DNA of 55,666 nucleotides from a virus (IMGVR_UViG_3300018080_000024:1-55666); one strand, 5' to 3'. Shown: positions 4,501 through 44,402, numbered from the stretch's first letter. Numbers and translations: made by a program. The notes: generated from the letters alone by a model not told the origin.

Positions 4501-7042
4501 CCTACGCGACGATCTGGCACGTGTGGCTGGCATTCTTGCCGAGCTGACCACCACCGTCACTAACGAAACAGCGAAGGCGCAGGCGGAGTTCTGGGCTGCC
4601 ACAAACGCGCTCGTGACGAACTTTGTCGCCGGTGCCGAGGCATTAAGCCAGCTGGTCAGTCTGGACCTCGGCGTCGAGATGGAGGGCGGCTGGGAGGCAT
4701 TCGAGTCAGCGTTGCTACAGACAAAAGAGGATCTGGAGCGCGTCGCGGGCATGCTAGACGACCTGGCCACTACCACTGACACCAAGGCCACGGCAGCCGC
4801 TGGAGAATGGTACAACGCCATACAGGGCGCGATATCTGGGTTCCTCACAGCATTCGAAGGACTCAAAAGGCTCAGCGAGGTAGCGTGGGTCAGGCCATCG
4901 CAAGTGGAATGGCTCACCATGCAATTATCAATCCGTGCCATGAACCTATATCTAGAGGCCTTGGCTCCACTTTTGGATGCGGGCACAGAGGCGCTGACGG
5001 CCATCGTTACAAATAGTGCGGCATTCTATGGTGCCATCGCAGATGCCGTCTCCGGGTTCATCGCGGCATTTCAAGGGCTCTACAACCTGACCACAGCATC
5101 CTGGATGGGGCCGACACGACTTCAATGGCTCACCATGCAGCTCACGATTCGGGCTATCAAGGTCAATCTAGAGGCGCTCGTCCCGCTTTTGGAGGCCGGG
5201 ACTGAGGCATCGACTACCATCGCCACGACTAGCGGGGCCTTTTACTCTGCTGTTGACCAGGCCATATCCGGCTTCTTGGAAGCTATGGATGAATTGAAGG
5301 CGCTCACTGAAGCCGCTTGGATGGGGCCAACGCGCCTGGAATGGCTCACCATAGAGCTCACGATCCAGGCTATCAAGGTCAATCTAGAGGCGCTCGTCCC
5401 GCTTTTGGAGGCCGGGACTGAGGCGTTGACTACCATCGCCACGACTAGCGGGACATTCTATGGCGCCGTAAGCGGAGTGATAGAGGGGTTCCTCAGCGCG
5501 TTCGCCAATCTGAAGGAGCTTGCGAAGGCGGCCTGGATGGGGCCAACGCGTCTGGAATGGTTCACCATGCAGCTCACAATCCAGGCTATCAAGATCAATC
5601 TAGAGGCGCTCGTGCCGCTATTGGAGGCGGGAACTGAGGAGCTAATCACGCTGGCCACGGCATCGGCCGGATTCTATGACGCGGCCAACGCGGTCATTGG
5701 CGGATTCCTGGCAGCGTTCCAGGCACTCAAAGAGTTCTACTCTACCGATTATGCGCTGCCCAACGTCTTAGAGCGCAGTGGATGGATCGACGACCTGCGA
5801 CTGGCCATCGAAGGACTAGCGACTGGCCTGTCGACACTCAGCCCTGATCTTGACGTCGATGCCGTATCTGCTGCTGCGGAGTTTTATTCCGACGTTCAAA
5901 CCATCATCGGGATCGTCAAGCCCGCCCTTGAGGCGCTGCGCGCTCTGGCTTTGTACGTGCCCTATCTGAGGCTGCCCGAGGCGATGGAAAACTTCAAAAC
6001 CGACTTGACCACGCTGGTGACCAAGCTCAGAGAGGTGGCCGACAGTTTCATGGGTACCGGAGAGGAGCCGACCGGACCGATGGAGGCCTCGGCGGCTATT
6101 GCTACAGCCATCGGGACAATGATCGGGATCGTAAAGCCTGCCATCGACGCCGTGAAAGCGCTGCTTGGGTATACGTCGTCGGTGAATCTACCCCAGGAGC
6201 TAGCTGATTTTGAGGCGGACCTACGGCTAGTGATTGGCAGCATCAAGAGGCTCGCCGACGATTATCGGGACAGCCTGATAAATGCAGAAGCCTTTGCAAC
6301 CACCGCTGGCACGATCATCGGCCTTATCGAGCCTACGTTACAGGCGCTTGCGGCACTAGTCAGTCAGAACAGCGAGGACTACGAGGCCGCTATGGACACG
6401 TTCGAGCGGACCGTCGGCGACATTATCAATACCATCAATCGCGTCCAGGGCGACATGTGGACATACGGCGTGCCACATGCGAAGGCGTTCGAGGCCGCAG
6501 CATTGGCAGTCAAGAATGCCATCGAGAAGGCGCTGAGCTACCTCAACGTGACCTTCGAGCCCTTCTTCACCCGCGGCGCATCCAGCCTAGGGCACCTCAT
6601 CGCGTCACTGGGTGAGCTGGAGGACAAGGGCGGGGGCGCTCTCAAACGATTCCGCAATGGCGCCGTGAGTGATTTCAATGACATCACGACGGCTGTCCGT
6701 GCGCTCATCACCGAGGTCGGAGCGTTGAATAGGGCGCTAGACGACGTTGATGTGCCGCCAGAGCTCGAAGGGCACAGCCCGCCACCGCTCGCTGACTGGA
6801 TGGGCCAAGTGGCGGATCAGGCCGAGAGAGCAGGCTCGGCCATGCGTCGCCTGATGATGCCCCAGCCGATGCTCATCCCCGCCCGAGTCTACAGGGGCGC
6901 AGGCGCTGGCGGGGGAACGACTACGAACAACAATGCGGCGGTGAACATCTACAACCCCTCGATGAGATCCGATGCGGATATGGTGGCGATTGAGTCGCGA
7001 ATCGAGCACACGGTTCTGCGCGCTTTGAGGAGGAAGGTCTGA
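1511..7042 (+). CDS. Tape measure protein
   Basis: 1843 aa Ala/Gly/Leu-rich helical protein; TMP-like GVGRLSPMILDNLGI core, Trp/Phe-spaced repeats (GDWDAAW), SPS motif; position in tail module. Confidence 0.92.
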   Translation: MALQKIGLATVLDDQGFGKGSAAYNKAIKGMEENTDRAAKGIGAGLKKIAQFAAGNLLAGGIQGLAQQTIEMVKAAGQIPGVAGAFEGLGGSIERMREASLGMVTDIELMKTFNSAAQLVSTDFAQKLPDAMSMLSKVSAATGEDMGFMLDSLVKGVGRLSPMILDNLGIQVNLTEANEAYAASIGKSAKDLTKAEQQTAVMNMTMEKLAINTASMPSIAGTAGQQMASFGVQVQNLRNDIGVALLPVMSAVMSVMAQLASKVFPLLVKAAQGLSSALMAVWNAGSRFGGLVAEIGGLLPGFVKEFVALKDSGFDPLRRAWVAFINVLGGERFFQLKAHFDAARKSVEELISKALNPVQTAFELLEGKVPTPVLFRLAQAVYRVRDAFINAVGFAKEFIGSLDITLPQLPDLSTLFTQGASAGGGLIDAIIGSDPAQLLMDRLSGLAEPIITAVTTTFEEVKAALSSGDAGGVLAALFGGAQEIGPLIAGLKPKLIGVAFELADSLAVALAEAFPDLAPTIEEFIRPALDIGKRLAGLFFDAQKLVKGAVMKIGESIGGTLLESLPDVMNILGKLGTLFESTFRSLLPVVTTAITTIGSIFERVFPVVLSTVQRVIPVVQSIIENMAPVVVKAIQIVGNIFEKVVPFAMDLIARMAEFIGSKMPQIAAIITAALEAIKIVFDTVWPAVQVIVEVAWTAIQSLISGALNIIQHIINTVLAVLQGDWDAAWQAIKQVPGEVLTAVAGVLGGILDGILKIFGTNKEDLWTTITETWEGLKSKIETKAGEIVSAITTKVAEWTKPVRNLIATFKGLGEDIMGGLKAGLEAAWSNVEQVFTKLIELLPAWAQKLLKSESPSQVFWDIGADIMEGLANGMSDSEAKVLKIIADAVEDFIEAFDQFVRTIQLAQDMSIEPDSFFSLQWLENFAGAITSILEEVKNALAAYKEGDIKRWKGKLSELVGVIEALASSMEAIAKITGNLDLDANVFDEAFFTVTLSGLRDDLARVAGILAELTTTVTNETAKAQAEFWAATNALVTNFVAGAEALSQLVSLDLGVEMEGGWEAFESALLQTKEDLERVAGMLDDLATTTDTKATAAAGEWYNAIQGAISGFLTAFEGLKRLSEVAWVRPSQVEWLTMQLSIRAMNLYLEALAPLLDAGTEALTAIVTNSAAFYGAIADAVSGFIAAFQGLYNLTTASWMGPTRLQWLTMQLTIRAIKVNLEALVPLLEAGTEASTTIATTSGAFYSAVDQAISGFLEAMDELKALTEAAWMGPTRLEWLTIELTIQAIKVNLEALVPLLEAGTEALTTIATTSGTFYGAVSGVIEGFLSAFANLKELAKAAWMGPTRLEWFTMQLTIQAIKINLEALVPLLEAGTEELITLATASAGFYDAANAVIGGFLAAFQALKEFYSTDYALPNVLERSGWIDDLRLAIEGLATGLSTLSPDLDVDAVSAAAEFYSDVQTIIGIVKPALEALRALALYVPYLRLPEAMENFKTDLTTLVTKLREVADSFMGTGEEPTGPMEASAAIATAIGTMIGIVKPAIDAVKALLGYTSSVNLPQELADFEADLRLVIGSIKRLADDYRDSLINAEAFATTAGTIIGLIEPTLQALAALVSQNSEDYEAAMDTFERTVGDIINTINRVQGDMWTYGVPHAKAFEAAALAVKNAIEKALSYLNVTFEPFFTRGASSLGHLIASLGELEDKGGGALKRFRNGAVSDFNDITTAVRALITEVGALNRALDDVDVPPELEGHSPPPLADWMGQVADQAERAGSAMRRLMMPQPMLIPARVYRGAGAGGGTTTNNNAAVNIYNPSMRSDADMVAIESRIEHTVLRALRRKV
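4886..5749 (+). repeat. Four 216-bp (72-aa) tandem repeats inside tape measure gene
   Basis: Trp codons of WVRPSQVEW / WMGPTRL(Q/E)W at 4886, 5102, 5318 and 5534, exactly 216 bp apart; shared TCTAGAGGC (LEAL) segment. Confidence 0.9.
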
Positions 7043-11897: not shown

Positions 11898-12250
11898 ACG
11901 GCATGGAGATGGTCCTACAGTATGTGCTGCTGGTCATCACCGGTGGCGGTGCAGGCAAAGTCGTAGAGTGGCTCATCGAGAAGCTGGACCTGAGCGCGTG
12001 GAGCACCTTGGCGAAGCGCATCTTTGCCCTGGTGGTCTCGGCGATCCTAGGCGTCGGGGCCTGGGCAGTGTTGGCGTTGCTGGGCTTGGCGGCCCGGCTC
12101 GACATCGGCCTCCCGAGCGGCAGCTGGCCACAAACGGGCGAGGAGTGGCTCGTGACCGTGATGATTATCATTGTGACCACCTGGACCTCATCGCAGATGT
12201 TCCACGCGGTCTCGCGGGACGCCAGGACGTCCGCGCTGCGGCGTCCATAG
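11894..12250 (+). CDS. Putative holin
   Basis: 118 aa with about three hydrophobic segments and a basic C-terminus; end of tail operon. Confidence 0.6.
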   Translation: MNGMEMVLQYVLLVITGGGAGKVVEWLIEKLDLSAWSTLAKRIFALVVSAILGVGAWAVLALLGLAARLDIGLPSGSWPQTGEEWLVTVMIIIVTTWTSSQMFHAVSRDARTSALRRP

Positions 12251-12279
12251 TGTAGCGGCCCCATCACCCCCATTTCCCC

Positions 12280-12305
12280 CCGCCCCGCCCTCACCGGCGG
12301 GGCGG
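12280..12305 (+). terminator. Repeated GC hairpin (terminator-like), copy 1
   Basis: CCGCCCCGCC-ctcacc-GGCGGGGCGG; same hairpin at 19486 and 41528, always just upstream of a promoter cassette. U-tract is weak here. Confidence 0.6.
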
Positions 12306-12317
12306 CTCTCGTTGGGC

Positions 12318-12456
12318 GGAATCTTTACGCAAAATTTACGCAATCTTTACGGATAGCTATAGACGTAGGCGGGAAACTATGCTATAATATCGTCGTAAGG
12401 TTAAGGACGGGGCGGCGATAGGGACTGCCCCCAGACACCCGAAGGAGACGAACGAA
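12318..12456 (+). promoter_or_regulatory. Repeated promoter cassette P1 (TTTACG boxes, sigma70 promoter, leader hairpin, RBS)
   Basis: TTTACG at 12324, 12335 and 12346; -35 TAGACG 12360-12365; 17-bp spacer; extended -10 TGcTATAAT (12383-12388); near-identical to P2-P4. Confidence 0.9.
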
Positions 12457-12756
12457 ATGGCAACCGACTTCCAAAAGATTGTGAAGGCTTTGCTTATAGA
12501 CTCCGACTTACGCATTAGCAAGATCGTTTGCAAGCGAAACGGGACCATTCATGTGATGCGCCGTACTAGCATGGGGACTACGAAGTCACTCAAGTCCTGG
12601 AATACGGATGTGTTCAAAGCCTTGTTCGCTCCTTTGAACGGGGACATTATGATCGACGGATATAACATGGTCAACACTGCAACGCTAGATGGCTACTTGG
12701 TTACCATTGTCGCACCCGCAGCGCCAGTGTATCTGCCATATATGAGAGCGGACTAG
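12457..12756 (+). CDS. Hypothetical early protein
   Basis: 99 aa ORF with SD AAGGAG directly after P1; AT-richer than the genome average. Confidence 0.7.
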   Translation: MATDFQKIVKALLIDSDLRISKIVCKRNGTIHVMRRTSMGTTKSLKSWNTDVFKALFAPLNGDIMIDGYNMVNTATLDGYLVTIVAPAAPVYLPYMRAD

Positions 12757-12764
12757 CCCAAGCA

Positions 12765-12828
12765 CGCGAAAGCCCGGGGCACACACCCCGGGCTCGCCGG
12801 GAAATCGGCCCGGCCTGATGAGCGGAGA
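12765..12828 (+). ncRNA. Type II hammerhead ribozyme HH1
   Basis: cgc-GAAA-stem III (GCCCGGGG/CCCCGGGC)-UC-stem I (GCCGGG aaatcgg CCCGGC)-CUGAUGA-gcg; complete catalytic core; predicted cleavage after C12795. Confidence 0.9.
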
Positions 12829-12848
12829 CAAACACACGGGAGGGCACA

Positions 12849-13058
12849 ATGGAGCGGCTTATGAACGGGCAGGCAGACGCGGTAGCAGTATTGCTCGACA
12901 ATCGCTGGACGATGGACGTATGCTGGAGCCACGAAGATCACTACACGGTTGTGCTCCAAAACGCCTCCCACGTGATCCTGGGCGTGGGCGATACGGTGGC
13001 CGACGCTACAGCAGCCGCAGAGCGCGACGCGCAGCGATGGCTCGACGAGAGGGCATAG
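12849..13058 (+). CDS. Hypothetical early protein
   Basis: 69 aa ORF with SD GGAGG after HH1. Confidence 0.65.
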   Translation: MERLMNGQADAVAVLLDNRWTMDVCWSHEDHYTVVLQNASHVILGVGDTVADATAAAERDAQRWLDERA

Positions 13059-13151
13059 CAACGAGCTCACCGACGTCCGGCAGATCGTCGCCGCAGTGGA
13101 AACCATCGGACGGGCGCTGGGATTGTCATTGCGTCGGTAATACATTCGCAC

Positions 13152-13179
13152 GGCTGGCGTGCTACCCGGCGCGCCAGCC
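13152..13179 (+). promoter_or_regulatory. Intergenic hairpin upstream of ArdC RBS
   Basis: GGCTGGCGTGC-tacccg-GCGCGCCAGCC, 11 bp including one G-U. Confidence 0.5.
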
Positions 13180-13197
13180 AACCCTTAGGAGGTCAGC

Positions 13198-14007
13198 ATG
13201 TCCAAGTACACGGTCAAGCAGTTAGCAGATCGCATCGCTGATGGCGCGGAGCAGTTGGTACAGGATGGTGCGTGGGACGAGTACCTGAAATTCATCTCGC
13301 GATTCCCCGGCTACAGCTTCGGGAACCTCATGCTCATCTACACCGCCCGGCCCGATGCATCGCGTGTCGCCGGATACCGCACGTGGCAGAAGATGGGCCG
13401 CCAGGTTCGCAAGGGTGAGAAGGGCATCGCGATCTTGGCCCCGCACCAGTGGAAGCGCAAGGACGAGGATGACGACCAAGACGTCTCGCGGCGGACCGGC
13501 GTCGGATTCCACGTCACCTATGTCCGGGACGTGAGCCAAACCGACGGCGACCCATTGCCTGAGATTGCTCCGCCGTTGAGCGGCGATGACCCCAACGGGA
13601 TCCTGGGCCAGGTCCTAGGTGCCATCAAGCGCCGTGGCCTAGTCGTCGAGTTCACCGACGAGATGGTCGCCGACGGGGCTACGAACGGGCGCACCGTCCG
13701 CCTCCACACGGAGCGGGCCGCAACGCACCAGGTCGCCGTCGCGCTCCATGAACTTGCTCACGTCATCCTCGGCCACACGTCCAATCGTCGTGATGTGCCT
13801 CAGGCAGCGATGGAGTGGGAGGCCGAGTCGGTGTCCTACGTCGTCTGCGAGCGGCTGGGGATAGACTCCTCGACCAACGCGCTGGGCTATGTCCTGTCGT
13901 GGGCACATGGCGATCCCGAGGCGGTCCGTGAATACATCGCCGAGGAGGGCAACCTGATCCTCACCGTCGCCAGTGAGATCGTCGAGGCCGTTGCCGTAAA
14001 CGCCTAA
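13198..14007 (+). CDS. ardC: ArdC-like antirestriction protein (ssDNA-binding N-domain plus zincin-like HExxH domain)
   Basis: YSFGNLMLI, VAGYRTWQKMGRQVRKGEKGIAILAP, DVSQTDG, HELAH and EWEAESVSY motifs. Confidence 0.85.
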   Translation: MSKYTVKQLADRIADGAEQLVQDGAWDEYLKFISRFPGYSFGNLMLIYTARPDASRVAGYRTWQKMGRQVRKGEKGIAILAPHQWKRKDEDDDQDVSRRTGVGFHVTYVRDVSQTDGDPLPEIAPPLSGDDPNGILGQVLGAIKRRGLVVEFTDEMVADGATNGRTVRLHTERAATHQVAVALHELAHVILGHTSNRRDVPQAAMEWEAESVSYVVCERLGIDSSTNALGYVLSWAHGDPEAVREYIAEEGNLILTVASEIVEAVAVNA

Positions 14008-14015
14008 GTGTCTCG

Positions 14016-14153
14016 GGAATCTTTACGCAAAATTTACGCTATCTTTACGGATAGCTATAGACGTAGGCGGGGAACTATGCTATAATATCGTCGTAAGGTT
14101 AAGGACGGGGCGGCGATAGGGACCACCCCCAGACACCCAGAGGAGACAGCAGA
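14016..14153 (+). promoter_or_regulatory. Repeated promoter cassette P2
   Basis: Three TTTACG boxes; -35 TAGACG 14058-14063; -10 TATAAT 14081-14086; no upstream terminator hairpin. Confidence 0.9.
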
Positions 14154-14363
14154 ATGGCCCGCCAGAATTATCCGCCCACCCACGTATACAAATTCGCCGC
14201 GCACATCTGCTTCGCTGATACCCGCGCCGAGGCCGACGCGATCAAAGCCGACGCCGACGCCTACATCAACGCGCAGCGGGCAAACCTGCGCCCCGCGACG
14301 ATCAAGAAGCTGGAGGGCATCATCAGTGACGCGATCCTCGACTGGGAGGATTTCAACAGCTAG
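14154..14363 (+). CDS. Hypothetical early protein
   Basis: 69 aa ORF with SD GAGGAG after P2. Confidence 0.7.
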   Translation: MARQNYPPTHVYKFAAHICFADTRAEADAIKADADAYINAQRANLRPATIKKLEGIISDAILDWEDFNS

Positions 14364-14365
14364 TA

Positions 14366-14429
14366 CGCGAAAGCCCGGGGCGCTTGCCCCGGGCTCGCCG
14401 GGAAATCGGCCCGGCCTGATGAGCGGAGA
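14366..14429 (+). ncRNA. Type II hammerhead ribozyme HH2
   Basis: GAAA 14369-14372; stem III GCCCGGGGC-gctt-GCCCCGGGC; UC 14395-14396; stem I; CUGAUGA 14416-14422; gcg. Confidence 0.9.
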
Positions 14430-14444
14430 GGAAAAAGGAGGAAG

Positions 14445-14771
14445 ATGACCAAGCGATGGAGTTGGGCTTACGCCACAGTGCTGTCGCCAGCGGCCAAGGC
14501 CGCTGGTGCGCACATGGCAGAGCGCGGCCGAGTGCGATTCCCCCGCACGAAATGCCAGATTGCCTGGCTGAACGACGCGGCAGGCTACCCGCGAAACGTT
14601 ATCGCCGTGCTGGCGAGTGACGAAGAGTGGGAAACGTCGGTGGAGGTCCGAGACCATGACCGTGTCGTTACCTGTGCGTTCGCGGATGGGGACGACGTAA
14701 TCATCCATGCACACGGAACGGCTGCGGTCGACTCCGTGAGCGTCCCGCGCGGGTGGACGCTGGTTGGCTAG
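14445..14771 (+). CDS. Hypothetical protein bracketed by two hammerheads
   Basis: 108 aa ORF with SD AAGGAGG, between HH2 and HH3. Confidence 0.7.
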   Translation: MTKRWSWAYATVLSPAAKAAGAHMAERGRVRFPRTKCQIAWLNDAAGYPRNVIAVLASDEEWETSVEVRDHDRVVTCAFADGDDVIIHAHGTAAVDSVSVPRGWTLVG

Positions 14772-14779
14772 AGGCGGCA

Positions 14780-14841
14780 CGCGAAACCTAGCGGATAACC
14801 GCTAGGTCGCCGGGAAATCGGCCCGGCCTGATGAGTGGAGA
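14780..14841 (+). ncRNA. Type II hammerhead ribozyme HH3 (variant stem III, GUC triplet)
   Basis: GAAA 14783-14786; stem III CCTAGCGG-ataa-CCGCTAGG (different sequence, fully paired); UC 14807-14808; CUGAUGA 14828-14834; stem II cgc/gug with G-U. Confidence 0.92.
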
Positions 14842-14863
14842 CAAACACACGGGAGGGCACACA

Positions 14864-15085
14864 ATGAACGAGTCATACGAGCTCTTTGTAGATCGTAGCG
14901 CAGATCCGGCGGACATCGCGGCTATGACCCAAGACGAAATCGAGAACGACATCGAGGCCATGGTCCGCGAGGGGTGCCTGGACAACGAGCCAGACGCGAC
15001 CGAGGCAGAGATCGGCCAAGCACGCGAGTTTGCAGCAGCAGAGATTCTGTCTGAGGCGAAACGTCTGGCGGGCATCGAGGACTAG
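14864..15085 (+). CDS. Hypothetical acidic protein
   Basis: 73 aa, very Asp/Glu-rich; RBS block shared with the gene at 12849. Confidence 0.7.
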   Translation: MNESYELFVDRSADPADIAAMTQDEIENDIEAMVREGCLDNEPDATEAEIGQAREFAAAEILSEAKRLAGIED

Positions 15086-15158
15086 CCACACTCGTGAGAA
15101 CCGGGCTACCTGTCCGGCGGCCCGGTCCGACGAGCGATTATCAATCACTGGAGGGACG

Positions 15159-15464
15159 ATGAACAGAGCACAAGACCTGCGAGACCTGAAGGCCGCCGCG
15201 GACTTTGAGCTTGTCTGCGCCGAGGCCGGCGTGAGGATCGGATATTGTGTGCTGCGCGAGGACTTGGGCGTGTTGACCGCAGGGTCCAAAGTGGCGATCA
15301 TAGACTTCTACGCCGAGGGCATCACGTTCACGCCGGAGGATTGGCAGGGTCCGTTGCCCCACCTGGACGACCCCGAGGACATCGGGAACACGACCTGGGT
15401 GGACCAATACGGACACCAAGGCGTTATTATGGGGTTCTTGCCGCGGTTATTGGATACGTACTAG
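15159..15464 (+). CDS. Hypothetical protein
   Basis: 101 aa ORF with SD GGAGG. Confidence 0.65.
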   Translation: MNRAQDLRDLKAAADFELVCAEAGVRIGYCVLREDLGVLTAGSKVAIIDFYAEGITFTPEDWQGPLPHLDDPEDIGNTTWVDQYGHQGVIMGFLPRLLDTY

Positions 15465-15476
15465 CCGCCACCACGA

Positions 15477-15514
15477 GCGCCGGGACTGCCAACCGGCGCG
15501 ACTTTATCACTGGA
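15477..15514 (+). repeat. Intergenic hairpin repeat, copy A
   Basis: GCGCCGG-gactgccaa-CCGGCGC then ACTTTATCACTGGA; related copies at 15738 and 20289. Confidence 0.8.
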
Positions 15515-15522
15515 GGGATGAA

Positions 15523-15723
15523 ATGGAGACCAAGTACCCGAATGTCACAGTCCGGTTGGTGGGGGAGGACGGGAATGCATTTGCCATCCTGGGCCGGGTT
15601 ACAAAGGCTATGCAGCGGGAGGGCGTATCGAAGGCCGAGCGCGACGCGTACATGGCGGAGGCTACGGCTGGCAGTTACGAAGAGCTGATTGCCACCACGA
15701 TGCGTTGGGTGAACGTCAGGTAG
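15523..15723 (+). CDS. Conserved small phage protein
   Basis: 66 aa with LVGEDGNAFAILGRV...SYEEL motif, recognised from small phage hypothetical proteins. Confidence 0.75.
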   Translation: METKYPNVTVRLVGEDGNAFAILGRVTKAMQREGVSKAERDAYMAEATAGSYEELIATTMRWVNVR

Positions 15724-15733
15724 CGGAATCTAT

Positions 15734-15775
15734 AGTGGCGCCGGTTGGCAGTCCCGGCGCCACTTTATCACTGGA
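15734..15775 (+). repeat. Intergenic hairpin repeat, copy B (loop inverted)
   Basis: GCGCCGG-ttggcagtc-CCGGCGC then ACTTTATCACTGGA; the loop is the reverse complement of the copy A loop. Confidence 0.8.
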
Positions 15776-15791
15776 CGAGGAAGGGACACCG

Positions 15792-16178
15792 ATGACGAAA
15801 CAGGCACGGCTACCGCTAGGCCCCGGCAAAGAGCCTACCCTGCCGGTCCGCCAATATACTGCCATGGCCGAGGAGTACCCAGACGCGATCTTGCTCATGC
15901 GCCTCGGGGACTTCTACGAGGTCATTGGGTGCAACGCCATCACCGTTGCAGAGCTGTGTGACGGGGTGCTGACATTGCGCCCAGATGGGAGCGTGGACAA
16001 GAGCAGCGTGCGCGGGCGGCGGGCTATGGTCGGAATCCCGGCAGCGGAGTTGGACCAGGCAGTGAGGCGGCTCGTGCGCTGCGGCTTCAAGGTCGCCATC
16101 GCCGAGCAGGTTGGGCGGCTACCTCGCGGCCAGATTGCCCGGCGCGTCGCACGGGTTCATCGTTGTGACGAGCAGTGA
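15792..16178 (+). CDS. Stand-alone MutS domain I (mismatch-binding) protein
   Basis: QY...YPDAILLMRLGDFYE...MVGIP...LVRCGFKVAIAEQ...RRVARV matches MutS_I, including the Phe-X-Glu motif; only 128 aa. Confidence 0.88.
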   Translation: MTKQARLPLGPGKEPTLPVRQYTAMAEEYPDAILLMRLGDFYEVIGCNAITVAELCDGVLTLRPDGSVDKSSVRGRRAMVGIPAAELDQAVRRLVRCGFKVAIAEQVGRLPRGQIARRVARVHRCDEQ

Positions 16179-16198
16179 CGAGAAACGGAGGTAGAGCG

Positions 16199-16447
16199 AT
16201 GACTTGCGAATGCTGTGACGGGTACGGATACGAGGACTATCCCTGCGAGACCATGGTGCCGGATGGAGACACCATGATCGCCATAGAGGGCATGGAGCGT
16301 GTCGAGTGTCCCGAGTGTGTCGGGCGCGATATCTGCCCGCAGTGTGGTTCGCCGGAGGGACTGGATGGCGTCGGTGACGACTATTGGTGTCGTGAGTGTG
16401 GCTGGGCCAGGAACTGGGAGACGGCGCCCGAGCACTTGGCCTTATGA
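16199..16447 (+). CDS. Zinc-finger protein
   Basis: 82 aa with CECCDG, CPEC, CPQC and CREC motifs. Confidence 0.7.
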   Translation: MTCECCDGYGYEDYPCETMVPDGDTMIAIEGMERVECPECVGRDICPQCGSPEGLDGVGDDYWCRECGWARNWETAPEHLAL

Positions 16448-16465
16448 GCAGAGGAGGGGCATAGC

Positions 16466-16867
16466 ATGAGGATACTGGAAGCAGCGCGAGTATTGGGCTT
16501 GTCGCCAGACCGGGTGCGCCGGTATATCCGTGACGGATACATCGAGGCGGATCACGGCGACAACGAGTGGAACCTGGACGTGAGCGCCGAGGAGCTGGAC
16601 CGGTTCTTGCGAGACGTGGTGCCTGTGATGCGCCACAAGGAGCCCGTCGAGGTTCCTGAGACGCCGACGGTATGGCGGGTGAACGAGGTCGGGGAGCTAT
16701 ACGACGTGGAGCCCGCGACGGTGCGCAAGTGGATCTATGACGGTGTCCTGCCGGCGCGCAAGGTTGGGTCGGAATGGAGCATCCGTCGTAAGGACCTGAT
16801 AAGGTTTCGCCCGCGTCGCCGTGGGCGGCCCTTTGCCTACGGAGTGAAGGAGGGAGAGTCACTGTGA
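16466..16867 (+). CDS. Tandem Xis/MerR-like (HTH_17, BldC-like) DNA-binding protein
   Basis: Two domains: EAARVLGLSPDRVRRYIRDGYIEA and EVGELYDVEPATVRKWIYDGVLPARKVGSEWSI; C-terminal RGRP. Confidence 0.85.
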   Translation: MRILEAARVLGLSPDRVRRYIRDGYIEADHGDNEWNLDVSAEELDRFLRDVVPVMRHKEPVEVPETPTVWRVNEVGELYDVEPATVRKWIYDGVLPARKVGSEWSIRRKDLIRFRPRRRGRPFAYGVKEGESL

Positions 16868-17013
16868 AGCTCGTTGAGCTCTATCGTCGGGAGCGCTGGG
16901 TCGCCTACGCGGTAGCCGCCGCCGTCACCATTGGCGCTGGCCTGATCGTTCGCCATCCCATCGCGACCATCGTATTGTCAATCACGATCCTAGCAGGTTT
17001 GGAGGAGAGATGA
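16864..17013 (+). CDS. Small membrane protein
   Basis: 49 aa GTG-start ORF with two hydrophobic stretches, overlap-coupled on both sides. Confidence 0.55.
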   Translation: MKLVELYRRERWVAYAVAAAVTIGAGLIVRHPIATIVLSITILAGLEER

Positions 17014-17765
17014 AACTGAGAGATTGGCCGGGAGACATCCCGTTCCGCATGATCCCGGAGCTCACCGATGCCGAACATGGCTGGTGGGCGTGTGAAGGCG
17101 GACTGTTCGTCGATGAGCCAGACGGGAGCCTGGATGACGAGGGCTTGTGGGAGGCATTCGAGCGATATGCAGATCGCCTCCAAGCCGTGAGCCGGGCCCT
17201 GCCCTGGGTGCTGGGCGACTTTTTCAATCTGGCCGAGACACGCTGGGGCGAGTCCTATGCGCAGCTAGCCGAGGCTACGGGCTACCACGAGACGACGCTC
17301 TACAACGCCAAGTGGGTGTGCTCTCGCGTGCCCATGGAGATCCGGTTCCACGCGCCGTCGTTCAGTCACGCCCAGGCCGTCGCGCCGTTGCCGGACGTGG
17401 AGATGCGCGAGGCCTACCTGCGCATGGCCGAGGACAACGGCTGGACCCGCGATGACCTCCGGCTAGCAGTGCGGGCGATCCTCAACGAGGCGACGCCGAA
17501 GTGGTCCGAGGAAGGCCCAGATGCCCACGATGGCGAGATAGTGCCCGTGGCGGCCATCCACAACCTGCCCGACGTGCGCCGGTCCTTGACGGCCTATCGG
17601 TCACAGTTTGAGCGACTGATCTTTGCGCTGGAGGACATGGTCGAGCTCGAGCTTGCCGATGACGTCCGTGATCTATGGGGCGCGCTGAATCGGCTGGTCG
17701 GGCGAGTAGACGCGATGCTTGAGGCCATGGACGCCGTTGAGAGCGGCCAGGCCTACCCAGACTAG
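17010..17765 (+). CDS. LmbU-like DNA-binding protein
   Basis: WVLGD...YAQLAEATGY...TLYNAKWV...SFSHAQAVA...WTRDDLR pattern of LmbU-type phage proteins. Confidence 0.6.
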   Translation: MKLRDWPGDIPFRMIPELTDAEHGWWACEGGLFVDEPDGSLDDEGLWEAFERYADRLQAVSRALPWVLGDFFNLAETRWGESYAQLAEATGYHETTLYNAKWVCSRVPMEIRFHAPSFSHAQAVAPLPDVEMREAYLRMAEDNGWTRDDLRLAVRAILNEATPKWSEEGPDAHDGEIVPVAAIHNLPDVRRSLTAYRSQFERLIFALEDMVELELADDVRDLWGALNRLVGRVDAMLEAMDAVESGQAYPD

Positions 17766-17775
17766 GAGGACACGC

Positions 17776-19473
17776 ATGAGCAGCATCATCGGGCTCCACA
17801 TCGAGCGACCGGACCGCCCTGACTGGCTCCTCGACGTCTTGCGCCAGGCGGGTCCGGCCATGCCCTACCAAACCTGGATCGTCCACGGCGGCGAGACGCT
17901 GCCGCGATATGAAGGGCAGACCAATATCGCCCGTCCGTGGATAGGTGGCGACACCGTGGAGCATCACCTGATCCGACAAGGACGGGCCGGGGGCGTCGCC
18001 TACGCCGAGCGCGTCCTGGACATCGCCCGAACCGTGGGCGAGGCCGACTATTGGCTCGGCCCCAATGAGCCGCCGGTGGAGATGCCAGAGCACCGACAGA
18101 ACCTCGTGTCGTTCTACCTTGGCTTCGCGGACAAGCTCCACTCCGCAGGCATCGAGATCGGCGGCCCGTGCGATGGCGTGGGGCGGATAGGGTCCGGCGA
18201 TCCCTACCTGGACGCCACATACCCGGACTGGCGAGATCGTGTCGGGGAGGCGGCGTTGGACCTGAAATCACTCTATGCCGTCGTGGACATCATCATGACC
18301 CACGCCTACCTCAAGCGCGCCGGGGCGGACTATGAGGAGGTGGACGGCTGGCTCCAGCGGAGCAAGTTCATCGTGACGGCGATCCCTGCGCTGTCACATC
18401 TGCCGTGGGTCGCAACGGAGACCGGCCTAGACATCGGCGGTGGCCTGAATGATGGCTGGCTCGGGCCCGGAGGCCCCGACCCGCTACGCTACATCGAGAT
18501 CATCCGCGACATCAACTGGCTGCTTCCAGAGTGGTTCGTGGGCGCGTGCCTGTTCGGATGCCTCCCCTACCAGCGGTGGGCGAAATGGGAGCTGTCGGAG
18601 GAGTTCTGCCGGCGCTATCTCCTGCCCTTCGTGGCGACAAACCCTCTGCGCCAAGGGTCCCCCGCTCCAACGGATCCGGTGATCCAGCACGAGCCCTTCG
18701 CGCTGGAGGATTGGCACGATGACCACAAAGGGCCGATGAATGTCCGTGAGTTCGCCATGTGGCTCAAGACGGTCGAGCCTGTAGCGCCGGTCCGCGAGCT
18801 ATGGCTACACCATACGGCGACGGAGGCTGTGCCGTGGAGCCGCGATACGATTTTCAATGTGCGAGACTACTATAACAGGCTGCTGTGGACTGACGCCGCT
18901 GGCCGCCAGCACCGAGGTTGGACGGCGGGACCGCACCTGTTCATCGGCGACGAGGGCATCTGGCCCTTCAGTCTCATGGACCGGGCCGGAGTTCACGCCA
19001 GGGGCCACAACACCGACGAGGCACGGGGAATCGAGATGATCGGCACGTTTGACGACGCCCCGCCATCACCGGACACGTGGCGTAACACAATGGCCGCGCT
19101 GGCCGTGATGTGTAACGTCTGGGGCCTGGATCCTGAAGAGGCGATCCACTTTCACCGCGACGACTCCGATAAGACGTGCCCGGGGAAGGCGGTCCACAAG
19201 CTCGACGTCATTTATGCGGTACGTGAGATCATGCGTGATGACCCGCTAGTCGGAGGCATGTCTCTTCCGACGCCGACGACAGAGGGCATGACGACGGTCC
19301 ACGAGCGTGTTCGAGCCGTCCGCTGGTACCTCGAGGAGCTAGTCCGTTGGCAGGAGCGGCTGCTGGAGCATCCGTCCAATAGCGATGACATTATCAATCG
19401 CCAGCGGGCCTACGTGCTACACCTCATCGACATCGCCTATCTGCTGGAGGATGATACGCGGGAGGAGGCGTAA
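17776..19473 (+). CDS. Putative endolysin: N-terminal clan-A-like glycoside hydrolase plus Amidase_2 domain
   Basis: GPNEP and ATETG acid/base and nucleophile-like motifs; amidase LHHTA...GVHARGHN...GIEMIG...HFHRD...KTCPG; SD GGAGG before ATG 17776. Confidence 0.8.
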   Translation: MSSIIGLHIERPDRPDWLLDVLRQAGPAMPYQTWIVHGGETLPRYEGQTNIARPWIGGDTVEHHLIRQGRAGGVAYAERVLDIARTVGEADYWLGPNEPPVEMPEHRQNLVSFYLGFADKLHSAGIEIGGPCDGVGRIGSGDPYLDATYPDWRDRVGEAALDLKSLYAVVDIIMTHAYLKRAGADYEEVDGWLQRSKFIVTAIPALSHLPWVATETGLDIGGGLNDGWLGPGGPDPLRYIEIIRDINWLLPEWFVGACLFGCLPYQRWAKWELSEEFCRRYLLPFVATNPLRQGSPAPTDPVIQHEPFALEDWHDDHKGPMNVREFAMWLKTVEPVAPVRELWLHHTATEAVPWSRDTIFNVRDYYNRLLWTDAAGRQHRGWTAGPHLFIGDEGIWPFSLMDRAGVHARGHNTDEARGIEMIGTFDDAPPSPDTWRNTMAALAVMCNVWGLDPEEAIHFHRDDSDKTCPGKAVHKLDVIYAVREIMRDDPLVGGMSLPTPTTEGMTTVHERVRAVRWYLEELVRWQERLLEHPSNSDDIINRQRAYVLHLIDIAYLLEDDTREEA

Positions 19474-19485
19474 ATCCCTAAGTGC

Positions 19486-19520
19486 CCGCCCCGCCATCAC
19501 CGGCGGGGCGGCGTCTTTGT
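19486..19520 (+). terminator. Repeated GC hairpin terminator, copy 2
   Basis: CCGCCCCGCC-atcacc-GGCGGGGCGG then cgtctttgt. Confidence 0.65.
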
Positions 19521-19525
19521 CCCGG

Positions 19526-19660
19526 GGAATTTACGCAATCTTTACGGATAACCCACAGTTGGTGGTAGACTGAATCCTGATTATATGCTATAATATCGTC
19601 GTAAGGTTAAGGACGGGGCGGCGATAGGGACCACCCCCAGACACCCAGAGGAGACGACAG
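19526..19660 (+). promoter_or_regulatory. Repeated promoter cassette P3 (variant)
   Basis: TTTACG at 19530 and 19541; -35 TAGACT 19566-19571; 17-bp spacer; TGcTATAAT (19589-19594); same leader as P2. Confidence 0.88.
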
Positions 19661-19858
19661 ATGGCAGACACGATGGCAATGGCGGTCAAAGATTTGGACG
19701 CGCGGTTAGCGGTAGCATGCAACAAGGCACCGAAGATGGATTTGGACGGAAGCCGCTATGACTGCTTCGCCCCAACGCTAGACTGGGTTGCGAGACAATA
19801 TGGGGTGAACGCTGGAGACCTGTATCTCGCATTTTGCGACACCTACGCCAACGACTAG
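19661..19858 (+). CDS. Hypothetical early protein
   Basis: 65 aa ORF with SD GAGGAG after P3. Confidence 0.7.
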   Translation: MADTMAMAVKDLDARLAVACNKAPKMDLDGSRYDCFAPTLDWVARQYGVNAGDLYLAFCDTYAND

Positions 19859-19864
19859 CTAGTA

Positions 19865-19928
19865 CGCGAAAGCCCGGGGCAAGCGCCCCGGGCTCGCCGG
19901 GAAATCGGCCCGGCCTGATGAGCGGAGA
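19865..19928 (+). ncRNA. Type II hammerhead ribozyme HH4
   Basis: GAAA 19868-19871; stem III GCCCGGGGC-aagc-GCCCCGGGC; UC 19894-19895; CUGAUGA 19915-19921; gcg. Confidence 0.9.
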
Positions 19929-19950
19929 ACACCCGAAGGAGACGAACGAA

Positions 19951-20280
19951 ATGCATTGGTATCAGCACACAGTCGACAGCCTGAGACGCGACATCGAGAC
20001 CAACCTGGACACCGCCGCCAAGGTCTGCCGTATGATCGAGGTCAACCAGACCCGCGACGAGCGCCGCACCGCCACCACCATCCACGACAACGACCAGGGC
20101 TTCAGCCAGGCCGACGCCCCGTACCTCCAGCCGATAGCGGACAAGCTGTGGACGGGGATGGACCCGCGAGACTTGGCCGGGCAGGAAAAGGTGATTCTCA
20201 AAGCGTACACCGCCAAGTACGCGGCGCAGTACCTGGAGTTCAGCCGCTACTACTACCGGCTCAACAACCCGATTTGCTAG
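19951..20280 (+). CDS. Hypothetical protein
   Basis: 109 aa; QTRDE...T.HDNDQGFSQADA motif seen in phage hypotheticals; RBS block identical to that of P1. Confidence 0.7.
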   Translation: MHWYQHTVDSLRRDIETNLDTAAKVCRMIEVNQTRDERRTATTIHDNDQGFSQADAPYLQPIADKLWTGMDPRDLAGQEKVILKAYTAKYAAQYLEFSRYYYRLNNPIC

Positions 20281-20288
20281 CATGACCA

Positions 20289-20311
20289 GCGCCGGGACTG
20301 CCAACCGGCGC
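20289..20311 (+). repeat. Intergenic hairpin repeat, copy C
   Basis: GCGCCGG-gactgccaa-CCGGCGC, identical to copy A. Confidence 0.8.
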
Positions 20312-20339
20312 ACTCACCCAATCAGACGAGGAGGCAACG

Positions 20340-20801
20340 ATGAACACCTATGCGATGTATCACAAGGCGGACACCGAGGACCTGCGAGTGCCCGAAGGCC
20401 AGGAGTGCCCCACGTGCGGGATCAGCCTGGCCGACGATCTAGAATGGACCGACCACAACACGGTCATCTGTGCCGGTTGCGGCACGGAGTACACGCCCGA
20501 GGCCGTACCGCCGCGAGGCATCAAGGCGCAAGAGGCCGCCTACGAGGCGCTGGACAAGATGGAGCGGTGGGGCGAGGCCGCCCTAGTACACTATGATGAT
20601 GGGAGCTTCGACGCCGTGCCCGCCGCGTACCTGACCGACGTCTCATGGTCGGGCAAGGGCCACGTGGACGGCTACGTCATCGTGTACGATCTAGTCGGCC
20701 TCAGCTGCGATGAGCGGAACTGGGGCGCGCTGTTCGAAATGGAGCGCCAATGGGCGGCTCGGCGTCTGGTAGAGCGGTGCTTGCGCTCAGCGATACACTA
20801 G
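20340..20801 (+). CDS. Zinc-ribbon hypothetical protein
   Basis: 153 aa with CPTCG and CAGCG; SD GAGGAGG. Confidence 0.7.
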   Translation: MNTYAMYHKADTEDLRVPEGQECPTCGISLADDLEWTDHNTVICAGCGTEYTPEAVPPRGIKAQEAAYEALDKMERWGEAALVHYDDGSFDAVPAAYLTDVSWSGKGHVDGYVIVYDLVGLSCDERNWGALFEMERQWAARRLVERCLRSAIH

Positions 20802-41566: not shown

Positions 41567-41704
41567 GGAATCTTTACGCAAAATTTACGCAATCTTTACG
41601 GATAGCTATAGACGTAGGTGGGAAACTATGCTATAATATCGTCGTAAGGTTAAGGACGGGAACGGGGATAAGGACCGCCCCCAGACACGCAGAGGAGACG
41701 AACA
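41567..41704 (+). promoter_or_regulatory. Repeated promoter cassette P4
   Basis: Three TTTACG boxes; -35 TAGACG 41609-41614; -10 TATAAT 41632-41637; near-identical to P1. Confidence 0.9.
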
Positions 41705-42010
41705 ATGAGCGCAGCATACTTTGAGACACTCAGCGAAGGTAAGACGCTCAAGCAAGCATTCGATGCTGCAACGAGCAAGGCCAAGATGTTGTACGGGGCA
41801 GGTGGGTACACTGGGACGGTTGCCGAGAAGCGCACGGTTGTTGAGATCACCGAATATAAAGGGCGCGCAGAGAGCACCGCCCGCACGTTCGCTCGCAAGC
41901 TCATCGCCGACGACGACTCTCGAGTAGACGATAAGTGGGGCCCGGCGGGCGCGATTTGTTACAGCAAGAGCAAGGGCAAGTGGCTAATCTTTGGATGGGC
42001 TAGTTCGTAG
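41705..42010 (+). CDS. Hypothetical protein (moron-like stand-alone unit)
   Basis: 101 aa with YG.GGYTGTVAEK...DKWGPAGAI...WLIFGWASS, a conserved-looking phage pattern; own promoter and terminator. Confidence 0.8.
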   Translation: MSAAYFETLSEGKTLKQAFDAATSKAKMLYGAGGYTGTVAEKRTVVEITEYKGRAESTARTFARKLIADDDSRVDDKWGPAGAICYSKSKGKWLIFGWASS

Positions 42011-42028: not shown

Positions 42029-42057
42029 AGAAGCCGCCTTCGGGCGGCTTCTTTGCT
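42029..42057 (+). terminator. Intrinsic terminator
   Basis: AGAAGCCGCC-TTCG-GGCGGCTTCT then TTGCTT; cUUCGg tetraloop. Confidence 0.85.
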
Positions 42058-43367: not shown

Positions 43368-44402
43368 ATGCTGAGACACAGAGGCGGATACGCGTCAAAC
43401 GCAAACAAGCTCCGTCTGACCGCGACGACGGCAGGCGCAGGCCAGACGGTGACGCTACAACGGATCACCCACTCTCGTCCGTCAACAGTCCAGTGGGGCG
43501 ACGGGGCCGTCGACAGTCACGGCGCGGACTATACGGGGCCCTGGACGCACACGTATACCGATGCGGGGACGTACGAGGTCTGTGTCCACCATGCGGACCG
43601 GATCACCGGCGTGGACCTGCGCGACAGCAAGATCAGCGGACTCAACACCGTGCAGCTGCGGCGGTCGGTACTAACGCGGTTCTGGGCCACTGGTCTAGAC
43701 GCAACTACGGCCAATGTCATCAGGTCCGCCGACATGATCAACTGGCGACCGACGCTCTGGTATCTGTATTCGATGCCCGCGGGGGCGTACGACATCGACT
43801 CCGCGCACATGGTCGACTGGCGACCGACGCTCTGGTCTCTGCGCTCGATGCCCGCAGGGACGTACGACATCGACTCCGCGCACATGGTCGACTGGCGACC
43901 GTTGAGCTGGTATCTGTTTTTGATGCCCGCAGGGACGTACGACATCGACTCCGCCGACATGGTCGACTGGCGACCGACGAATTGGCGGTTGTACTCGATG
44001 CCCGCAGGGACGTACGACATCGACTCCGCCGACATGGTCGACTGGCGACCGCTGTACTTGTGGCTGTACTCGATGCCCGCGGCAGGATCGTCCTACGCGT
44101 TTGCGGCGACGTGCATGCGCAACTGGACGGGGGCGGAACTTATCTACTGCCAAGACCTCGGGCTGCTACAGGCCACGGTGGACGCGATTATCGCCGACGT
44201 CTGGGTGGGGCGCGCGGGGTATACGTACGCCACGCCAGAGCTCAATGTGGGCGGCACCAACGCGACGCCGACGGGCGTGTATCAGGACGGCTACCCGCTG
44301 CCGCTCACGGCGCTAGAGGCTGTGCACGATCTTGTCAACGACGACGATGCGGCGGGGATCAATACATGGTCGGTGACCTGGAATGGCGGTAGCGCACCAT
44401 GA
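43368..44402 (+). CDS. PKD-like plus LRR-like repeat protein (putative virion adhesin)
   Basis: VQWGDG...THTYTDAGTYEV (PKD-like), then five 25-aa repeats. Confidence 0.7.
   Translation: MLRHRGGYASNANKLRLTATTAGAGQTVTLQRITHSRPSTVQWGDGAVDSHGADYTGPWTHTYTDAGTYEVCVHHADRITGVDLRDSKISGLNTVQLRRSVLTRFWATGLDATTANVIRSADMINWRPTLWYLYSMPAGAYDIDSAHMVDWRPTLWSLRSMPAGTYDIDSAHMVDWRPLSWYLFLMPAGTYDIDSADMVDWRPTNWRLYSMPAGTYDIDSADMVDWRPLYLWLYSMPAAGSSYAFAATCMRNWTGAELIYCQDLGLLQATVDAIIADVWVGRAGYTYATPELNVGGTNATPTGVYQDGYPLPLTALEAVHDLVNDDDAAGINTWSVTWNGGSAP
43725..44081 (+). repeat. Five 75-bp tandem repeats
   Basis: Units start at 43725, 43800, 43875, 43950 and 44025; consensus SA(D/H)MVDWRPxxWxLxSMPAGTYDID. Confidence 0.95.

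Follow-up and report, generated by a model that had tools for sequence, protein, structure and literature searches.

The window analysed here is the whole of IMG/VR record IMGVR_UViG_3300018080_000024 (55,666 bp), a complete-rated phage genome with 123-bp direct terminal repeats and a GC content of ~58–64%. It encodes a large terminase, portal, protease, capsid, replication initiator, DnaC-like loader, DNA methyltransferase, and amidase, and a crude open reading frame (ORF) call placed all plausible genes on the + strand. Four short intergenic elements on this strand, designated HH1 to HH4, have the architecture of type II hammerhead ribozymes and are placed among small early genes that follow repeated promoter units. 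Their coordinates, predicted cleavage sites, and scores against the Rfam family RF02276 and against a model built from the phage copies (R1) are as follows.

HH1, 12762..12828, + strand: type II hammerhead, predicted cleavage after C12795; RF02276 35.6 bits (12764-12833), R1 99.5 bits
HH2, 14363..14429, + strand: type II hammerhead, predicted cleavage after C14396; RF02276 33.0 bits (14365-14434), R1 100.1 bits
HH3, 14777..14841, + strand: type II hammerhead, predicted cleavage after C14808; RF02276 41.2 bits (14779-14846), R1 73.5 bits
HH4, 19862..19928, + strand: type II hammerhead, predicted cleavage after C19895; RF02276 30.2 bits (19864-19933), R1 100.4 bits

An earlier note on this DNA had described four intact type II hammerheads with the element order cgc-GAAA-stem III-UC-stem I-CUGAUGA-g(c/u)g-GAGA. 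This order is exact in the parsed copies, and the note's identification of the elements is supported by their core, their topology, the Infernal scores, and covariation. The residue C17 maps to the four positions that it had named as cleavage sites (C12795, C14396, C14808, and C19895). Stem III of HH3 has, as it had stated, another sequence but is fully paired, and stem II of this copy contains one G-U pair. All four copies have the same 40 nt across stem I, loop I, and the core. HH1, HH2, and HH4 also share an identical stem III and differ just in loop III and one flanking base. The stem-loop III of HH2 (14372-14395) is the exact reverse complement of that of HH4 (19871-19894), and the two copies thus differ by an inverted loop of a palindromic hairpin.

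The core pattern CGAAA..TC..CTGATGAG has four matches in the whole genome, all on the + strand. Dinucleotide shuffles of the genome gave a mean of 0.07 matches to the same pattern, and four matches were reached in 0/100 shuffles; because the copies are paralogues, the four matches do not represent four independent events. The earlier note had proposed a search with the Rfam hammerhead models, and this was carried out with Infernal and Rfam release 15. All four elements were assigned to RF02276 (Hammerhead_II) and to no other Rfam family, with single-genome E-values of 1.1e-8 to 8.9e-6. The gathering score of this family (37 bits) was passed by HH3 only, with HH1, HH2, and HH4 falling short by 1.4–6.8 bits (E-values of 3.3e-7 to 8.9e-6). 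A covariance model (R1) was then used that had been built from HH1, HH2, and HH4, with HH3 kept out of the seed. The R1 scores of HH1, HH2, and HH4 are high by construction, since the model derives from these copies. When R1 was run on the whole genome with filters off, no fifth copy was found; the best other full-length match scored 13.4 bits. The remaining matches scored at most 24 bits, and those at ~20–24 bits correspond to the palindromic stem III on the opposite strand.

The copies were also folded alone. For HH1, HH2, and HH4, both the minimum free energy (MFE) structure and the centroid are the hammerhead three-way junction. The fold Z-scores of the copies range from −2.2 to −3.2. Loops cap both stem I and stem III, and stem II is open, as expected for the type II permutation, and short (3 bp).

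Relatives of the elements were sought in metagenomes and genomes. Three exact words taken from the hammerheads had 0 matches in IMG/VR and 0 in the JGI metagenomes. A degenerate pattern, in which nothing but the core boxes and the tail was set, had 0, 11, and 5 matches in IMG/VR, the JGI metagenomes, and the GTDB genomes, respectively. Only two metagenome loci among these 16 matches are true hammerheads.

Locus L005, 733-797, − strand: hammerhead relative, R1 63.1-63.2 bits
Locus L007, 443-507, + strand: hammerhead relative, R1 66.2 bits

Twelve of the other 14 pattern loci were re-scored with R1 and taken as chance matches, with 11.6–20.4 bits at the site and stems that are broken or gapped; L012 and L015, whose sequences repeat L006 and L013, were not re-scored. 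Both L005 and L007 have the identical layout of stop codon, hammerhead, ribosome-binding site (RBS), and start codon, beside unrelated genes. The likeness between L005 and HH1 extends ~15 nt beyond the ribozyme.

The covariation set consisted of six sequences, namely the four paralogous copies, L005, and L007. They were aligned by fitting to the model (alignment A5), because MAFFT misaligned stem III of the shorter copies. In the hammerhead register, standard pairs occupy 108/108 pair cells (18 pairs in 6 sequences). Changes on both sides were found at 8 of the 18 pairs; stem III accounts for six of these and stem I for two. The covariation score was reached by 0/500 shuffles, and sliding the 3′ partners by 1–3 columns lowered pairing to 27–52% of the cells. 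Variation is confined to loop III and compensated stem positions. The invariant core (CUGAUGA, GAAA, A15.1-U16.1, and C at position 17) is unchanged in all four copies and in both relatives. Within this alignment, the compensatory changes show selection on the RNA fold and not on the DNA alone. Judged by core, topology, and covariation, the four elements are thus genuine type II hammerheads and members of RF02276, three of them with borderline scores.

Among the runs listed for 12300-15100, none was of RNA. The stretch 14403-14841 is matched by contigs from four other DNA runs with no more than 4 differences; this cover is partial and comes from related strains. The sole listed difference inside HH3 in these contigs is 14798 A>G, located in loop III. 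A 991-nt contig of run X2 aligns from 12794 (U16.1 of HH1) to 13062 through the first gene behind HH1 with 9 differences, whereas the 28 letters at its end, which lie upstream of 12794, do not match the phage sequence. This may reflect a related strain with a different stem III or another upstream gene at HH1. As a separate observation, position 13676 continues at 17796 in contigs from runs X2 and X5, with 23 other letters in between and 4119 nt skipped. This join may come from another organism, as its shorter side is 21 letters and the likeness threshold was 80%.

The hammerheads are placed relative to four promoter units of 132 nt, P1 to P4, and to a hairpin that follows the first gene of the last unit.

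P1, 12318..12449, + strand: promoter unit with conserved 5′ leader; −35/−10 at 12360-12388; repeat families D3 and D6; GC hairpin at 12280-12320 before it
P2, 14016..14147, + strand: promoter unit; −35/−10 at 14058-14086
P3, 19524..19655, + strand: promoter unit; −35/−10 at 19566-19594; terminator-like hairpin at 19486-19511 before it
P4, 41567..41698, + strand: promoter unit; −35/−10 at 41609-41637; the sole unit without a hammerhead
GC hairpin, 42029..42052, unstranded: follows gJ, where P1 to P3 have a hammerhead; terminator-like on the − strand only; followed by TTTGCTT on the + strand

Each unit has TAGACG as its −35-like element, along with an extended −10 (TG-n-TATAAT) and a 5′ leader that is conserved among the four; in the promoter scan, P1 scored 10/12 with the TG extension. 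Three TTTACG words per unit, ~11–12 nt apart, lie right upstream of the −35 (12318-12360, 14016-14058, 19524-19566, and 41567-41609) and might bind a regulator or act as an UP-like element. P3 departs from the other units in its TTTACG spacing and its −35 flank. The same GC hairpin precedes three of the units, and two of its copies scored as terminator-like.

The genes that flank these units and the hammerheads are small.

gA, 12457..12756, + strand: 99 amino acids (aa); first ORF of P1, upstream of HH1; no family found
gB, 12849..13058, + strand: 69 aa; first ORF on the predicted HH1 3′ product; no family found
gC, 13198..14007, + strand: 269 aa; ArdC-like anti-restriction N-domain and metallopeptidase, on the predicted HH1 3′ product
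gD, 14154..14363, + strand: 69 aa; first ORF of P2, upstream of HH2; no family found
gE, 14445..14771, + strand: 108 aa; lone ORF between HH2 and HH3; no family found
gF, 14864..15085, + strand: 73 aa; first ORF past HH3; no family found
gH, 19661..19858, + strand: 65 aa; first ORF of P3, upstream of HH4; no family found
gI, 19951..20280, + strand: 109 aa; first ORF past HH4, with a 25-nt leader identical to the P1 leader; weak phrog_21015 match (E 1.4e-4)
gJ, 41705..42010, + strand: 101 aa; first ORF of P4

The assignment of gC is based on matches to PF08401 (E 2.3e-13), PF06114 (E 2.2e-05), and phrog_7245, an anti-restriction protein (E 2.3e-16). Besides gC and the weak match of gI, the Pfam and PHROGs searches found no family for the other 8 of the 10 small proteins scanned. 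No usable match for gE or gA was found in the protein atlas, and no paralogy was found among the flanking small ORFs.

In P1, P2, and P3, a hammerhead comes after the first small ORF (HH1 after gA, HH2 after gD, and HH4 after gH), and HH3 is located after gE, the second ORF of P2. The earlier note had described this arrangement for three of the four units and had assigned a terminator to the fourth; the first part stands, whereas the hairpin behind gJ is terminator-like only on the − strand. The note's observation that each element starts close after a TAG stop codon and just before the next gene also agrees with the measured distances. From stop codon to the CGC of the element, the gaps are 8, 2, 8, and 6 nt for HH1 to HH4, and from GAGA to the next ATG they are 20, 15, 22, and 22 nt. 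TAG is indeed the upstream stop in 4/4 cases, but the identity of the codon carries no weight, because TAG is the commonest stop of the genome (42 of 80 crude ORF calls). The P1 leader (12435-12459) is identical to the leader after HH4 (19929-19953; repeat family D10), and the leader after HH1 (12829-12851) is identical to that after HH3 (14842-14866). Because identical leaders and ribozymes recur before unrelated genes, the intergenic module appears to move independently of the surrounding genes.

With a probability of roughly 0.7, we interpret these elements as functional ribozymes that would cut polycistronic early transcripts constitutively and co-transcriptionally into hairpin-ended mRNAs. 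The + strand transcripts would start at P1, P2, and P3 and include the hammerheads. Each 65–67-nt motif would fold into the three-way junction on leaving the polymerase and cleave after C17. The upstream RNA, carrying gA, gD, or gH (for HH3, gE), would end in a 2′,3′-cyclic phosphate behind the stem III hairpin and UC; this GC-rich stem III of 9–10 bp would lie 12–18 nt beyond the stop codon. The downstream RNA would carry its 5′-OH on the base that opens the paired part of the 6-bp stem I hairpin, with the RBS and start codon ~52–58 nt past the cleavage site. Given this hairpin at the 3′ end and the stem I-led 5′ end, a hammerhead would act as a non-terminating terminator hairpin combined with a defined, context-free leader. 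The phage could thereby set the stability and the translation of neighboring early genes separately. The earlier note had proposed self-cleavage as a processing system, and the proposal fits the anatomy, with a stem III-ended 5′ product and a stem I-led 3′ product; as an idea it is not new, having been put forward in 2011 in the work of Perreault et al. (PMC3088659).

Several points weigh against this interpretation. In HH3, the MFE structure and the centroid keep stems I and III, but stem II is moved by two bases to a CAC/GUG register. A pseudoknot of at least 4 bp between loop I and the 3′ tail cannot be drawn in the four copies, where the best conserved loop I/tail complementarity is 3 nt and overlaps stem II. 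A search for a pseudoknot between loop I and the 5′ flank likewise revealed nothing conserved of at least 4 bp. As described in the relevant part of Perreault et al., loss of the pseudoknot slowed one mutated hammerhead with a short stem II by 20- to >100-fold, and 4 of 18 candidates that conformed to the consensus were inactive in vitro (PMC3088659). According to the same account, the majority of type II members can form a loop I-3′ tail pseudoknot of at least 4 bp; it is not obligatory. Three of the four copies score under the Rfam gathering score (35.6, 33.0, and 30.2 vs 37 bits). The two relatives in the covariation set came from a pattern with fixed core and tail, and the alignment was fitted to the model structure. 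Upon cleavage, the predicted accessibility of the RBS rises in three of the four cases (0.40 to 0.82, 0.51 to 0.83, and 0.40 to 0.53) and falls in the fourth (0.61 to 0.51); because the result is mixed, it is weak evidence either way. Finally, a 5′-OH can mark an RNA for decay, as described for the glmS ribozyme, whose product is degraded by RNase J1 in Bacillus subtilis (PMC3328962). Whether the 5′-OH would be stabilizing or destabilizing depends on the RNases of the host.

The last point leads to an opposite outcome of cleavage, in which the hammerheads would lower distal expression. The 3′ product with its 5′-OH would be fed to an RNase J-type 5′-3′ exonuclease, so that only the first small ORF accumulates. 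Besides the glmS precedent, in which RNase J1 of B. subtilis accepts such a 5′-OH product in the account cited (PMC3328962), the placement of three of the four hammerheads right after the first ORF of their unit, with a mere hairpin at this place in the fourth, is in line with such a role. Still, the 3′ product would begin inside the 6-bp stem I, without a single-stranded 5′ nucleotide, and a paired 5′ end should hinder 5′-end-dependent RNases. The downstream genes, which have strong RBSs, moreover include the ArdC-like gene and the whole early region, presumably needed by the phage. We therefore regard distal silencing as doubtful.

The lack of the canonical pseudoknot has a further possible meaning, as cleavage could be conditional. 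The hammerheads would then be slow or regulated switches that respond to ribosomes terminating 2–8 nt upstream, to Mg2+, or to a factor of the phage or the host that replaces the pseudoknot. Consistent with this, the 5′ strand of stem II should be within reach of a ribosome at the stop codon, and Perreault et al. raise regulated cleavage for phage hammerheads in the section concerned (PMC3088659). The 5′ flank GCA and the loop I sequence (A/G)AAUCGG are kept in L005 and L007, although the search pattern left both free, and the persistence of this loop and of a GYA flank in relatives with changed stems points to a specific contact or ligand. On the other side, the motif is minimal (65–67 nt), nothing resembling an added aptamer domain was seen in the sequence, and the MFE structure is the active junction in three of the four copies. 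Conditional cleavage is therefore unlikely, and constitutive cutting remains our preferred reading of these folds.

The conserved loop I itself suggests another tertiary contact. On this basis, the four copies, L005, and L007 might form a subtype in which a different contact (loop I (A/G)AAUCGG with the flanks GYA and GAGA) takes the place of the pseudoknot. They might serve as a portable end-and-leader module placed systematically after the first ORF of each promoter unit, with HH2 and HH3 possibly releasing a ligatable gE RNA of 412 nt. We consider this combined proposal tentative and hardly probable. Such a loop I subtype may already be included in the supplements of Perreault et al. (PMC3088659), in the sequence alignments or in Figures S4 and S5, which treat tertiary contacts.

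A related explanation holds that the elements are a portable or selfish intergenic module spread by recombination, or that the HH2-HH3 pair serves to release the predicted 412-nt gE RNA (14397-14808) for circularization. The hammerhead-plus-leader unit is repeated before unrelated genes (repeat families D4 and D10), the same type of element lies beside unrelated genes in L005 and L007, and the identity of 40 nt in four copies, together with the loop III inversion between HH2 and HH4, is in line with this explanation. However, the compensatory changes show, within the aligned set, selection on the RNA fold beyond the DNA. As for circularization, the freed gE RNA would carry ends of the kind that RtcB-type ligases join, but making the two termini of this 412-nt RNA pair as a hammerhead-like stem II comes at +5 kcal/mol over its MFE structure. 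Perreault et al., in the part of their report that deals with such clusters, sought spliced or circular products and detected none (PMC3088659). Spread or circularization as the reason for the elements is thus quite improbable. It is very improbable that they are inactive look-alikes, GC-rich hairpin repeats that serve as RNA stabilizers or protein-binding sites and whose core was kept by recent duplication alone: the copies are paralogous with an identical stem III in three, three score below the Rfam gathering score, and 4 of 18 consensus-conforming candidates were inactive in the tests described by Perreault et al. (PMC3088659), but the divergence of HH3, L005, and L007, which affects 8 of 18 pairs as well as loop III, has left every core nucleotide unchanged, and this would be surprising unless catalysis were under selection.

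Searches for relatives of the phage gave few matches. No near relative of the region 12000-20500 was found with megablast and blastn among 50,697 phage records, the only matches being three 108-nt stretches within the ArdC-like gene, and no relative of the large terminase was found in IMG/VR. The best terminase matches (tblastn), in Streptomyces phage TurkishDelight and in Actinoplanes phage phiAsp2, have ~40% identity; because of these, an actinobacterial host is a reasonable guess, but no more than that. RF02276 scored 25.9 bits on the TurkishDelight record and 13.2 bits on that of phiAsp2. The 25.9-bit match (L018, 1501-1565, − strand) lacks the GAAA and CUGAUGA boxes and was rejected as a false positive. 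Two observations concern other parts of the genome. In the early region, an ORF of 128 aa (15792-16178, + strand) consists of MutS domain I (mismatch-binding) alone (PF01624, E 1.4e-19). Tandem direct repeats occur within ORFs of the structural region, with 75 nt in four overlapping copies at 43718-44092 and 216 nt in four copies at 4879-5676.

The phage elements can be compared with several known systems. Their likeness to RF02276 consists of the core CUGAUGA...GAAA, A15.1-U16.1, C17, the open 3-bp stem II, and a stem I near the Rfam consensus; they differ in that the phage copies have no loop I-tail pseudoknot, and the loop I (A/G)AAUCGG and the 5′ GYA recur in the two relatives. RiboJ-type synthetic insulators, placed between promoter and RBS, remove the upstream context by self-cleavage and leave a hairpin-led standard leader. 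The hammerhead from which these parts were engineered belongs to a plant satellite RNA and has another topology, whereas the phage element is natural and located between ORFs.

Natural type II hammerheads are often found in prophages, and the closest precedents are the prophage clusters described by Perreault et al. (PMC3088659). According to the section on these clusters, single genes or short gene blocks, the anti-restriction gene ardA among them, are bordered by hammerheads that show cleavage in vitro as well as in Escherichia coli; the cutting of long phage transcripts into gene-length mRNAs was already proposed for them (PMC3088659). The clusters in Agrobacterium tumefaciens (a triple around ardA), Clostridium scindens, and Azorhizobium caulinodans resemble the present case, as far as that description goes, in hammerheads of one orientation that flank single genes or short blocks. 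The same layout was found here: all four copies are on the strand of the genes, HH2 and HH3 enclose gE only, and gA, gD, and gH are each enclosed by a promoter unit and a hammerhead. An anti-restriction gene on the released fragment is a further likeness, although ArdA there and the ArdC-like protein here belong to different families. The present case differs from these clusters, as described, in being a complete free phage record with one near-identical type II subtype and placement by promoter units; cleavage was shown there and is predicted here.

Two further systems are alike in context or position. In Desulfovibrio vulgaris, three type II hammerheads near phage-like genes were reported to cleave in vivo, as detected by cyPhyRNA-seq (PMC8782182). 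Two of them lie ~300 nt apart, and cleavage was demonstrated there both in vivo and in vitro; our comparison follows their description in that source. In the haloviruses HF1 and HF2, a hammerhead variant within a polycistronic transcript precedes an early helicase gene by 13 nt, a similar position, and the mapped 5′ end is within 3 nt of the cleavage site, according to the passage on these viruses (PMC3088659). They are archaeal viruses with a variant core in a setting that differs from the canonical core and four copies found here.

The phage case is a new example of the clustered-phage arrangement described in 2011 for prophages; it adds an example and leaves the known picture unchanged. Particular to it are the placement of three of the four ribozymes by promoter units, the near-identity of the copies, and the conserved loop I and flank without the canonical pseudoknot. 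Keyword searches of open-access text found no paper on a pattern of ribozymes relative to repeated promoter units. A 2019 review, in its treatment of the subject, gives processing of polycistronic transcripts into RNAs of differing stability as suggested but unproven, and the role of bacterial and phage hammerheads in general as still unproven (PMC6765202). In this respect, the genome is a tidy natural experiment, in which near-identical ribozymes at set positions can be compared across four near-identical promoter/leader units, one with a hairpin instead. The conserved loop I without the canonical pseudoknot adds a small structural question. The arrangement bears on whether self-cleavage sets the relative stability and translation of neighboring early genes, including the ArdC-like gene.

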